In this document: piece by piece, positions 4,583-14,536 of the stretch
How the letters are laid out: each line of letters starts with the position of its first letter
Numbering within the stretch: the stretch's first letter is position 1
Virus record (IMG/VR): IMGVR_UViG_2728369187_000007
Span: 1-20,139 of that record
Length of the DNA stretch: 20,139 bases
Direction: 5' to 3' (one strand)
Source of the DNA: a virus
Lineage: Duplodnaviria > Heunggongvirae > Uroviricota > Caudoviricetes
Program-made: the position numbers and the translations under genes
The notes under the pieces: model-generated
Told to the model about the DNA's origin: nothing
What the model saw: only the letters and a program-made list of their open reading frames with translations
Database searches by the model: none

Positions 4583-4751
4583 TATCGCGTCCTCAACAAT
4601 GAATTTTGTGATGCAGTGCCTGGTGCCTCCAGGTGACGTTAACCAGTTAACAATTAACGCCGGATACAGAGAATCCACCCATAACACTGTTTTTGGTTTT
4701 AACTGTTCCGCGTGCGCTTAGCCGCATTCACCGCATCACAAAATTCACTTT

Positions 4752-4809
4752 AAAAATGGCGGCAGAGCAGTCACGGAGTAAAACTGATACCGCCAAACGT
4801 CACCAGAAA
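4752..4809 (-). ncRNA. dicF: DicF small regulatory RNA (ftsZ-targeting sRNA of Qin-type prophages)
   Basis: Reverse complement reads UUUCUGGUGACGUUUGGCGGUAUCAGUUUUACUCCGUGACUGCUCUGCCGCCAUUUUU, near-identical to the DicF sequence as I recall it. Ends in a GC stem plus U-run; located between the leader and dicB. Confidence 0.75.
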
Positions 4810-5084
4810 ATTGATAACAGAGGGCGTTGCAGCGGGGTTGTCACTTAAGCGTATGGTCAACCTGACAACTCGGTGTCCTCAACGGGGAAGGAATAACCCC
4901 GCCATACTTACCGCCGCGCCATTTCGCGGGTTGCCACAACCGGAAGCGCACGGTCGAATTAAATTTAACGACACCGTACAGTGAGACGAACTTCGCCGTG
5001 CGCTTTCGTGTTGTGTGCCTGCTTTTAACCACGTCAGGCGAGGTGGTATCCTTCTTATCCCGAATAACCAAGAAGGAAATCTAT

Positions 5085-8896: not shown

Positions 8897-10384
8897 GTGG
8901 ACATTAGAGACTGGCTACCAGAATTTCAAGTTTCAGCAGAAACAGATCGGGACTTACAGACCTATTTTTTTAAGCTACCGGCGATAAAGGATATTATTGA
9001 AAGTAGGGCTTGGTTGGTTCTTGGAAGAAAAGGTACTGGTAAAACAGCCATTTATGAACACCTTAGAAGAGGAAAACCAGCCAATCTCAACGGGTTTTAC
9101 TCAGTATGTCTAAATTTTAGTGACTATCCATGGCCAGCCCATCAACTTTACAAGGATGCAATGGCTGGAGAACTTTCCGCTTATCAAAAAAGTTGGATGT
9201 ATCTTTTTTATATTAAGGCATTATCTAAACTTATTGAAATAAAAAATGATGCTGGAGAGACTTTAAACAAAGATCTAACGTGGGCACATAATTATATCAA
9301 AACTATCTTTGGTAGTCCCGACCCAACTCTTAGGGAGGTTTTGTTTTCAAAAATAACCAGATTAAAAACCATAAAAGGGCCCAGTGCTGGTCTTAATGAA
9401 GTATCATTGGACGCAGGTGAAATTTCGTTAGAGGAAGTTGCTGAGAATGCTCAGCTAAAGCAAAAGCTAAGAGCTAATGCTTTCACATTGCTTACGTATT
9501 TTGAAAAAATTTTTAAAGATAACATTGGTAATGAAAAAATAATTATCGCCCTTGACCAATTAGACGAAAACTGGCTAGAGGGGCAAATTGAAGAATATAG
9601 TAAGGTTTTAATAAATCTGCTAAATGTCTGTAGAAACATAGCATCTGATGAACGCCTCAATGATAAATTAAAAGTCATTCCCTTCCTACGAACGGATATT
9701 TATCATTCTTTGAAATTCAATGATAAAAACAAATTATTGCAAGATAGTGCTATCATAATCTCATGGAATGAAAATAATCTAAACGATATGTATTATGAGA
9801 GGATAAAGAAATACAAACCTAATGATCTCATATTAGATGACGAAAAGGACAGATCTGGGAAAGTATTTGAGGTTTCATTCGTTAGGCAGGGGACTCCTCC
9901 ATTTAAATATATATGTCGCCGTTCTTTCTTTAGGCCTAGGGATATTATTGTCTACTTCAACAAAATTAGGGCATGTCATAAAAATAATGTCTCAGGTCTT
10001 TACACTTCCAATGAGCTTTATGAAGCTGACCGTGAAGCATCTATAAGTGTGTACAATGAGGTGATTGATGAATGGTCCAACCAATTCCCTGAAATTGAGA
10101 ACTTACTAACTGTTCTTCAAACTATCCAAGTAGAAACATTCGATTTTAATGATTTCTCCGAGAAGTGCCGTAATGAATTTGCAGGTATTTCTGATGGGGT
10201 GATACGTCAATATATCAACTTCCTGTTTGATAACTCACTTATCGGACAAAAAAAACAAGGTAGATGGGAATACGTAAGTAGTTTGCCTAACTTAAAAATT
10301 AATCTACAAAATGAGTTTAGGACACATCATGCTTTAAAATACAGGTTGCATTTAATAGAAAGCAGACCGAGCCAAAATATTTAG
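8897..10384 (+). CDS. P-loop NTPase of unknown family (495 aa) on an AT-rich island; candidate accessory/defence gene
   Basis: GTG start with a GAGG RBS 5 nt upstream; in-frame stop 18 nt upstream. Walker A GRKGTGKT (aa 43-50); candidate Walker B IIIALDQLDE (about aa 215-224). Markedly AT-rich relative to flanks, preceded by about 315 bp of AT-rich non-coding DNA. Confidence 0.85.
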   Translation: MDIRDWLPEFQVSAETDRDLQTYFFKLPAIKDIIESRAWLVLGRKGTGKTAIYEHLRRGKPANLNGFYSVCLNFSDYPWPAHQLYKDAMAGELSAYQKSWMYLFYIKALSKLIEIKNDAGETLNKDLTWAHNYIKTIFGSPDPTLREVLFSKITRLKTIKGPSAGLNEVSLDAGEISLEEVAENAQLKQKLRANAFTLLTYFEKIFKDNIGNEKIIIALDQLDENWLEGQIEEYSKVLINLLNVCRNIASDERLNDKLKVIPFLRTDIYHSLKFNDKNKLLQDSAIIISWNENNLNDMYYERIKKYKPNDLILDDEKDRSGKVFEVSFVRQGTPPFKYICRRSFFRPRDIIVYFNKIRACHKNNVSGLYTSNELYEADREASISVYNEVIDEWSNQFPEIENLLTVLQTIQVETFDFNDFSEKCRNEFAGISDGVIRQYINFLFDNSLIGQKKQGRWEYVSSLPNLKINLQNEFRTHHALKYRLHLIESRPSQNI

Positions 10385-10656
10385 CTTACATCCATCTCCA
10401 TTAAGAAATCTTGCTATTGTTCTTATGGATCGTCTTTCTGACTGATTTCATATTGGCGAGGTAAAGGTAGTTAAGTAGAATGGCTGCGGGTGCTTGAGGC
10501 TATCTGCCTCGGGCATGAACACCAAAGGCAGATAGAGAAAAGCCCCAGTTAACATTACGCGTCCTGCAAGACGCTTAACATTAATCTGAGGCTCAATCTA
10601 TGAACGGCAAATCTAGGTTAGCCTCTTACGTGCCGAAAGGCAAGGAGAAGCAGGCT

Positions 10657-10812
10657 ATGAAGCAGCAAAAGGCGATGTTAATCGCCCTGATCGTCATCTG
10701 TTTAACCGTCATAGTGACGGCACTGGTAACGAGGAAAGACCTCTGCGAGGTACGAATCCGAACCGGCCAGACGGAGGTCGCTGTCTTCACAGCTTACGAA
10801 CCTGAGGAGTAA
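10657..10812 (+). CDS. hokD: Hok/Gef-family membrane toxin (HokD/RelF-like)
   Basis: 51-aa product MKQQKAMLIALIVICLTVIVTALVTRKDLCEVRIRTGQTEVAVFTAYEPEE with the single TM helix and conserved Cys of Hok toxins. RBS AAGGAGAAG upstream of the ATG at 10657. Confidence 0.85.
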   Translation: MKQQKAMLIALIVICLTVIVTALVTRKDLCEVRIRTGQTEVAVFTAYEPEE

Positions 10813-10883
10813 GAGACCTGGCGGGGGAGAAATCCCTCGCCACCTCTGATGTGTCTGGCATCCTCAACGCACCCGCACTTAAC

Positions 10884-10900
10884 CCGCTTCGGCGTTTTTT
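10884..10900 (+). terminator. Weak intrinsic terminator downstream of hok
   Basis: Short GC hairpin (CGC-TTCG-GCG) followed by T6; a degenerate copy of the stronger terminator at 11547-11572. Confidence 0.35.
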
Positions 10901-10955
10901 CCGTTGATTAACTCTAGTTATTAGAGAACCGAACTTTTATTGATGGGGCAGGGAG

Positions 10956-11348
10956 ATGAAGAAACTTGTTTTAGTCGCAGGTGTAATGATTGCAACAGTA
11001 ATGTTGGGAGGGTGTGCAGCAAAGGTCGATCCAGCGTTGAAAGCAGAAGCAATGAAGCCACTAACATGTAATGATGAAAAGCAATGTGACTTTTATTGGA
11101 AACGAGCGCAATTCTGGTTGGCTAATAATTCCTCATGGAAAATTCAAACGGCGACAGACACGCTAATTTCCACTTATAATCCCTCTCCAAATAGTCCATT
11201 CCTCGCTTATCAAGTGAGTAAAATGCCAAATGAAGATGGATCCTCAAGAATTTTCATCAAGCCTTTTTGCGATAATATGTTTGGCTGTCAACCAAACCCC
11301 TATCAGGCAGTTGTTTCCTTTAAAAACTTCGTTAAAACAGGGCAGTAG
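10956..11348 (+). CDS. Lipoprotein of unknown function (moron)
   Basis: Signal peptide with lipobox (VMLGGC, Cys20) plus four further Cys. GGGAGA RBS. Lower GC than the backbone. Bracketed by terminators upstream and downstream. Confidence 0.7.
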   Translation: MKKLVLVAGVMIATVMLGGCAAKVDPALKAEAMKPLTCNDEKQCDFYWKRAQFWLANNSSWKIQTATDTLISTYNPSPNSPFLAYQVSKMPNEDGSSRIFIKPFCDNMFGCQPNPYQAVVSFKNFVKTGQ

Positions 11349-14226: not shown

Positions 14227-14302
14227 GGCCCTTTAGCTCAGTGGTGAGAGCGAGCGACTCATAATCGCCAGGTCGCTGGTTCAAATCCAGCAAGGGCCAC
14301 CA
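14227..14302 (+). tRNA. tRNA with anticodon CAT (elongator Met or Ile2-type)
   Basis: 76 nt. 7-bp acceptor stem GGCCCTT/AAGGGCC, D-arm GCTC...GAGC, anticodon loop CTCATAA, T-arm GCTGG-TTCAAAT-CCAGC, encoded CCA. G1-C72 pair argues against an initiator. Confidence 0.85.
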
Positions 14303-14303
14303 G

Positions 14304-14380
14304 CCGCCACTAGCTCATCAGGAAAGAGCGTCAACCCTTTAAGTTGAGTGTGCGAGGTTCGAGTCCCCGGTGGCGGTCCA
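14304..14380 (+). tRNA. tRNA-like gene, anticodon TTT (Lys) as read, atypical anticodon loop
   Basis: 77 nt. Perfect 7-bp acceptor stem, D-arm GCTC...GAGC, anticodon stem TCAAC/GTTGA with loop CCTTTAA (C at position 33), T-loop TTCGAGT with one A-C mismatch in the T-stem, encoded CCA. Confidence 0.6.
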
Positions 14381-14382
14381 GT

Positions 14383-14458
<76 letters not shown>

Positions 14459-14461
14459 TAT

Positions 14462-14536
<75 letters not shown>

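Follow-up and report, generated by a model that had tools for sequence, protein, structure and literature searches.

Sequence anatomy and predicted folding of a highly probable hok/mok/sok toxin–antitoxin cassette in a Qin/Rac-like lambdoid prophage of Escherichia coli

How is a hok toxin gene controlled when the relBE genes that precede hokD in Escherichia coli K-12 are missing? This question was raised by one locus in a stretch of DNA of 20,139 nt, which was analysed as a whole and is called the window here. A sequence-only reading had noticed a Hok-family toxin gene outside the relBE context, two hairpins upstream of the gene and an in-frame upstream start codon. It had left open whether a Sok-like antisense RNA or a mok-like coupling frame controls this copy, and it had raised the possibility that the toxin acts together with the NTPase encoded next to it. 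The sequence anatomy, the predicted folds, the covariation across the family and the near-identity to an experimentally tested locus were computed directly. These results indicated that a self-contained type I toxin–antitoxin cassette, namely hok/mok/sok of the hokD/hokW type, almost certainly spans positions 10453–10900 or so.

The window is an E. coli Qin/Rac-like lambdoid prophage. Its gene content included the DicF RNA, a YdaT-like gene, DUF977, an ATPase gene, hok, a 130-aa open reading frame (ORF), DUF968, RusA, the antiterminator Q and four tRNAs. The DicF sRNA was full length (4757–4808, minus strand; 73 bits), and the four tRNA genes were clustered 3' of the Q antiterminator (14227–14533, plus strand); both features are typical of Qin-like and Stx-like lambdoid prophages. 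The 130-aa ORF (10956–11348, plus strand) carried a lipoprotein-type signal (…MLGGC) and occupied the position that rem has in most alleles. It had no match in Pfam, NCBIfam or PADLOC, and an identical ORF was found 3' of hok in strain ECL27977.

The 51-aa product of the toxin gene was recognized by Pfam HOK_GEF (PF01848) with 81.6 bits against a cut-off of 22 and by the NCBIfam Hok family, and it was identical to UniProt HOKD_ECOLI (HokD), which bears out its assignment to the Hok family. No Hok model of PADLOC gave a match. The upstream region was indeed free of a relE-like frame, as had been claimed, and the preceding ORF (8897–10384, plus strand) encoded a 495-aa Sll1717-family P-loop ATPase (NCBIfam NF047389, 250 bits). 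Hence, the relBE context of K-12 was missing at this hok gene, whose leader was complete and which had the ATPase upstream instead. The Tyr47 codon of hok, TAC, lay within a TACG motif that was kept in the window (GCTTACGAA; 10795–10798, plus strand). A preprint describes, for hokD mRNA as for hokB, A-to-I editing at the corresponding site that changes Tyr to Cys (bioRxiv 10.1101/2025.08.07.668861). The coding and transcript features of the cassette are as follows; the hok Shine-Dalgarno sequence and the terminator-like element, as well as the Sok promoter given further below, were read from the sequence.

10453–10481, plus strand: predicted hok promoter, with −35 TTGGCG (10453–10458), a 17-nt spacer and −10 TAGAAT (10476–10481)
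10488–10898, plus strand: predicted full-length hok mRNA of about 411 nt, both ends inferred
10588–10591, plus strand: mok Shine-Dalgarno sequence, GAGG
10600–10812, plus strand: mok, 70 aa, in frame with hok, from the list of ORFs
10643–10647, plus strand: hok Shine-Dalgarno sequence, AGGAG
10657–10812, plus strand: hok, 51 aa
10819–10842, plus strand: stem-loop with a GAAA loop in the 3' untranslated region (UTR)
10885–10900, plus strand: weak terminator-like element, CGC-UUCG-GCG followed by T6

The predicted hok promoter had 9 of 12 consensus matches in the consensus scan and is presumably active. Its −10 was kept in six of six aligned alleles, and the −35 region varied with the genomic context. 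The 5' end of the predicted mRNA was placed by the start of the Rfam match and by its distance of 7 nt from the −10, and the 3' end by the hairpin and the T-run. The minimum free energy of this mRNA (10488–10898) was −163.3 kcal/mol, with a z-score of −5.9 against shuffles. The stem-loop at 10819–10842 was seen in both the full-length and the 3'-shortened folds. It probably shields the 3' end of the processed mRNA, by analogy with the final stem-loop in the truncated hok mRNA of R1 (PMC9841398). Intrinsic terminators were called by the scan on neither strand. The stem of the terminator-like element was shortened in the window allele and longer in the rem-linked alleles (CCCGC/GCGGG). The elements missed by the consensus scan, namely the Sok promoter and the terminators, rest on homology and folding.

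The leader of this mRNA was examined with the Rfam sok model RF01794, which spans the hok mRNA leader. The stretch 10488–10662 (plus strand) matched the model with 110.1 bits, against a gathering score of 59, over model positions 1–157 of 157. Both hairpins that had been noticed by eye fell inside this match, where they could be assigned to parts of the leader. The regulatory elements of the leader, the 3' UTR and the opposite strand are listed below.

10488–10499, plus strand: tac (translational activator), GGGUGCUUGAGG, 7 nt past the −10
10500–10535, plus strand: hairpin 1, the upper part of the tac stem-loop, with arms 10500–10509 and 10526–10535
10540–10546, plus strand: ucb (upstream complementary box, the mok anti-Shine-Dalgarno), AAGCCCC
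10559–10574, plus strand: hairpin 2, a clade-specific insertion at the tip of the ucb/mok Shine-Dalgarno stem-loop
10620–10625, plus strand: dcb (downstream complementary box), AGCCUC
10862–10874, plus strand: fbi (fold-back inhibition), CCUCAACGCACCC
10615–10643, minus strand: predicted Sok promoter, with −35 TTGCCT (10643→10638), a 17-nt spacer and −10 TAACCT (10620→10615)
10538–10608, minus strand: predicted Sok RNA of about 71 nt, starting near 10608 and ending in a U-tract near 10538, both ends inferred

The first hairpin had been described as a perfect 10-bp inverted repeat, and CTATCTGCCT (10500–10509) was found to be fully complementary to AGGCAGATAG (10526–10535). When the mononucleotides of the 521-nt region were shuffled 2000 times, 21 of the shuffles (about 1%) contained a perfect inverted repeat of 10 bp or more whose loop was 3–40 nt long. 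The repeat finder lengthened the pairing to 21-nt arms, i.e., 10489–10509 with 10526–10546. Hairpin 1 was part of the consensus structure of RF01794. Across 56 diverse leaders, 90.3% of the cells of its helix were paired and 7 of the 10 pairs had changed on both sides. This covariation score was reached by none of 500 shuffles, and slid registers dropped to 47–62% paired. RNAalifold on the 56 non-redundant leaders recovered the tac stem. The third pair of hairpin 1 in the window was A-U (CTATCTG/CAGATAG), a compensatory variant of the common U-A. The second hairpin, GCGTC-CTGCAA-GACGC, was present where it had been placed. It is an insertion that adds about 16 nt to the Rfam consensus and was found, among the 56 diverse leaders, only in hokD/hokW-type sequences and in one Kluyvera locus.

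The loci used for comparison were collected by an exact-pattern scan of one genome per species, which gave more than 120 hok loci from Escherichia, Photorhabdus, Erwinia, Pantoea, Serratia, Citrobacter, Kluyvera and other genera. The pattern was TAGCCTCTTAC-N11-CAAGGAG. Invariance at positions within the pattern was not counted as evidence, because the pattern itself had selected the loci, and only features outside it were used. Tandem arrays of 2–4 hok cassettes with a spacing of about 0.5–1 kb were observed in Photorhabdus (L008, L013, L022 and L072), and some of the array cassettes had a truncated Hok ORF or no mok start.

Folding of the hok mRNA had been proposed as a check for fold-back inhibition, and the pairing between tac and fbi was found, with covariation across 99 loci. 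In the window, the repeat finder gave a perfect 9-nt complement 375 nt apart (10485–10493 with 10869–10877). In the minimum free energy fold of the full-length mRNA (10488–10898), tac was paired with fbi, and the GCCC(C) of ucb was paired with the mok GAGGC, a pairing that sequesters the mok Shine-Dalgarno sequence. [quoted passage not shown] In this shortened fold, the mok AUG was carried in the hairpin formed with dcb, and hairpin 1 topped the tac–ucb stem. The pairing of dcb with the mok Shine-Dalgarno sequence was also a stem of the Rfam consensus. The closed-to-open switch as reproduced here is that of the published hok model (PMC9841398).

The same pairing was evaluated in the 99 hok loci, which came from many genera. 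The median energy of the tac–fbi duplex was −22.4 kcal/mol, versus −13.0 kcal/mol for shuffled 3' UTRs. The fbi element sat about 41–60 nt past the hok stop codon and changed in step with tac. The matched changes included GGGUGC/GCACCC versus GGGCGC/GCGCCC, CUCUGGAU/AUCCAUGAG and CUUAAGG/CCUUAA. The 5' arm in this search was limited to 13 nt; longer arms gave sprawling, uninformative structures. The GCCCC of ucb was nearly invariant in the 56 leaders. Covariation in the stem that the mok Shine-Dalgarno sequence forms with dcb was counted for its outer GAGGC/GCCUC pairs only, the inner MAFFT columns being too unreliable, and the 3' half of these pairs was fixed by the locus search pattern.

The in-frame ATG at 10600 had been noted as a start that would extend Hok at its N-terminus. 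This codon opened a 70-aa ORF, was preceded by GAGG at 10588–10591, and is the mok start codon. The GAGGC was invariant in the 56 leaders, though it lies outside the search pattern, and ATG or GTG codons preceded by GAGG clustered 19–23 nt 5' of the anchor motif across the loci. Of the 113 distinct hok loci sampled from other Enterobacterales, 35 had an in-frame mok of 61–72 codons and 33 had mok out of frame. The in-frame start is therefore a common state of the family and not an oddity. At least 1000 public contigs carried exactly this 70-aa sequence, named, for example, 'Hok family toxin' or 'regulatory protein', and its counterpart in VT2-Sakai was annotated as MokW-like.

On the opposite strand, the predicted Sok promoter was uncalled by the consensus scan, and its −10 matched the consensus at 3 of 6 positions. 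The first, second and last bases of this −10 corresponded to plus-strand positions that were conserved in diverse loci. The last base, a T, is the complement of the plus-strand A at 10615, which was at least 90% conserved in the 56 leaders and lies outside the search pattern. The promoter would be active by homology to that of sokW, which has been mutated experimentally (PMC8621323). In the predicted Sok RNA, a single-stranded 5' tail of at least 9 nt covered the mok AUG and was followed by a long hairpin and by UUUUCUCU. This RNA folded with −31.5 kcal/mol (z = −5.3) into a 24-bp stem followed by the U-tract. Its length equals the 71-nt complementarity of sokW (PMC8621323). On the minus strand, hairpin 2 capped the long Sok stem and thereby lengthened it. 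The TTAACATTA repeats flanking hairpin 2 formed G·U pairs on the Sok strand only and gave C·A mismatches on the mRNA strand, which suggests that the extended stem has been selected in Sok. Both controls that had been left undecided have their parts in this copy, like the canonical system: the mok start and the full match to the sok model were found, and the Sok promoter and its RNA of about 71 nt are predicted.

The nearest tested relative was hokW-sokW of the Stx2 phage VT2-Sakai (Sp5) of E. coli O157:H7, which had 93% DNA identity over window positions 10460–10884. Both are in lambdoid phages and share the same tac, hairpins 1 and 2, the position and length of mok (70 aa), the Sok promoter region and fbi, and their leaders were almost the same in sequence. 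They differed at the start of Mok (MLNTC… against MNGKS…) and at the C-terminus of Hok (…VDYESEK against …TAYEPEE). In addition, the flanking genes of VT2-Sakai were different from those of the window, and its copy was without the CGCTTCGGCG hairpin past fbi. The hokW-sokW locus encodes a toxin together with an RNA antitoxin that depends on RNase III and Hfq; HokW is toxic, SokW counteracts it, and the pair aids phage release after induction with mitomycin C (PMC8621323).

In the K-12 Qin prophage, hokD (relF) belongs to the relB-relE-hokD operon. Its Hok protein, 3' UTR and fbi were identical to those of the window, and the prophage backbone (DicF, DUF977, DUF968 and Q) was the same. However, homology began only at about 10643, at the hok Shine-Dalgarno sequence, and K-12-like genomes matched from query position 259. 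The K-12 copy was without the hok promoter, tac, ucb, the mok start and the Sok −10, with relBE in their place. Such an arrangement, with relBE upstream and the leader cut at the hok Shine-Dalgarno sequence, was not found in the window. The 70-codon form is ancestral and the K-12 form was truncated by insertion of relBE (PMC6379469). The absence of relBE from the window is thus not unusual, because it is the ancestral state and that of K-12 is derived.

The reference system, R1 hok/sok (parB), has the tac, fbi, ucb, dcb and mok that are seen in the window, as well as the Sok and the closed-to-open switch that are predicted there. HokW and R1 Hok have 44% identity (PMC8621323). The window has its mok in the frame of hok; in the sample, some R1-like loci had a 70-codon mok in another frame. 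The 16-nt insertion of hairpin 2 was present in the window and absent from the R1-like leaders, and the window copy lies in a prophage, whereas R1 hok/sok is on a plasmid.

A mechanism can be proposed by homology to R1 hok/sok and hokW-sokW, and it is from this homology and from folding that we infer transcription, processing, Sok action and toxicity for the window copy. The weak promoter would produce a stable mRNA of about 410 nt. In its closed form, the 5' tac would pair with the 3' fbi and ucb would hold the mok ribosome-binding site, such that neither ribosomes nor Sok could bind. Slow trimming of the 3' end would remove fbi, and tac would then pair with ucb, with hairpin 1 as the upper part of that stem. 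The mok ribosome-binding site would shift into the dcb hairpin, making the mok start accessible. The unstable Sok RNA of about 71 nt, transcribed antisense from inside mok, would pair with the mok start region, block mok translation and target the duplex for RNase III. If Sok were lost, e.g., upon transcription shut-off or prophage induction, mok would be translated, and the coupled translation of hok would yield the membrane toxin.

This reading has to be weighed against others that take the same anatomy differently. The relB-relE-hokD operon of K-12 raises the possibility that most hok expression comes from transcripts reading through from the gene upstream, with the leader elements left as relics. 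The hokD gene of K-12 shares a transcript with relBE (PMC5120126), and no terminator was predicted in the window from the ATPase stop codon (10384) to hok. However, the window copy, unlike that of K-12, keeps the −10, tac, ucb, the mok start, fbi and the predicted Sok promoter, all nearly invariant among the alleles. Its leader also passes the Rfam model in full, whereas K-12 homology covers only the part from about 10643. Expression mainly by read-through is therefore very unlikely, but read-through may add to the expression from the cassette's own promoter. The cassette might also look intact and yet be functionally inert, as a decaying remnant like several chromosomal hok loci. A preprint summarises earlier work in which the chromosomal loci hokA, hokB and hokC were reported to mediate no post-segregational killing (bioRxiv 10.1101/2025.08.07.668861), so that intact anatomy does not prove a killing function. 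The shortened terminator stem of the window allele and the insertion sequences that break sister copies of the ATPase–hok block (L128 and L134) could be taken in the same sense. Nevertheless, no ORF or regulatory element of the window cassette was damaged, the 93%-identical hokW-sokW is active, and the disruption of sister copies suggests that intact copies are costly, which implies activity. We consider decay unlikely.

The disrupted copies differed in the place of the break. In L134 (IMG/VR, 4740–4860), the divergence was at the hok start codon, with …GCAGGCTA before the break and GTGTTAAC… after it, and the new ORF past the break had basic helix-turn-helix-like residues and looked like a transposase. 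In L128 (IMG/VR, 4820–4900), the match ended near hok codon 28, and the sequence past this point, TGATCCTACCCACGTAATATGG…, resembled an IS3-type end. In STEC313 and STEC367, an IS3 was found inside the ATPase gene.

The joint action that had been suggested for the toxin and its neighbour would make hok and the Sll1717 ATPase one two-gene system, e.g., an anti-phage pair of sensor and membrane effector. The genes are neighbours on the same strand with 272 nt between them and no predicted terminator, and the ATPase–hok block was 99% identical among the genomes that have it. The ATPase had a weak PADLOC match to the candidate defence protein PDC-M28C (E = 4e-5); it had no Pfam domain, and a literature search on the family name Sll1717 found no papers. 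However, the genome counts, the varied neighbours of hok and the diverged ATPase alleles free of hok speak against a joint function. The ATPase was found in 43 of 5426 complete E. coli genomes, whereas a hok copy covering at least 80% of 10385–10905 was found in 3830 of them. Because all 43 ATPase copies were at least 99% identical, the linkage reflects one recent block and not selection. The gene 5' of the same hok cassette varied among relBE, an alpha/beta hydrolase, an integrase fragment with a hypothetical gene, small hypothetical genes and DUF551 genes. A tblastn search of about 0.9 Mb around 120 other hok loci (within about 8 kb) found no ATPase homologue. Three IMG/VR ATPase alleles of 89–92% identity (L131–L133) matched the window within the ATPase ORF only. 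Two of them (L132 and L133, 89–91% identical) were located in different phage settings, and the 2–3 kb examined downstream contained no hok. The ATPase of L133 sits beside tail-fibre-like genes, and the contig of L131 ends just past the ATPase. Conserved co-occurrence of ATPase and hok was not found across diverged members. In a published survey, hok was enriched in prophages and was not enriched near defence systems (12% observed vs 9.4% expected). Furthermore, the hok cassette has its own predicted promoter and a complete set of its own regulatory parts. A two-gene system is thus extremely improbable.

The changing neighbours could also mean that Qin/Rac-like prophages have a hotspot of cargo exchange that the hok cassette marks on one side, a reading that we regard as quite doubtful. 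The conserved cassette was bounded sharply, in a mosaic manner. Its left boundary was at about 10468–10470, between the −35 and the −10 of hok, and each context brought its own −35. Unrelated accessory genes, i.e., relBE, the Sll1717 ATPase, the alpha/beta hydrolase and others, were swapped in directly upstream. The conserved right boundary was at 10890–10900, inside the terminator stem. The window and ECL27977 had CCCGCTTCGGCGTTTTTT there, the rem-linked alleles had CCCGCTTCGGCGGGTTTTT, and VT2-Sakai had no such hairpin. Because each cargo gives a different −35 without a terminator before hok, the cargo could partly set hok expression, either by reading through or by the strength of the promoter, in the manner of the relBEF operon. 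If the hotspot reading were true, cargo and toxin would be loosely coupled in their regulation.

The reading as a self-contained hok/mok/sok cassette accounts for the features from which the question arose. Genome annotation usually lists the 51-aa hokD coding sequence alone and leaves out mok and Sok. It is because of this omission that the hairpins appear unexplained to a reader of the sequence. The window cassette is an ordinary, complete and very common copy of a kind that is already known, and its significance outside annotation is small. It provides base-level coordinates for each regulatory element of one hokD/hokW-type cassette. For E. coli prophages, it indicates that the complete cassette is the common form, and that the relBE-hokD locus of K-12, which is often taken as the reference, is the truncated exception.
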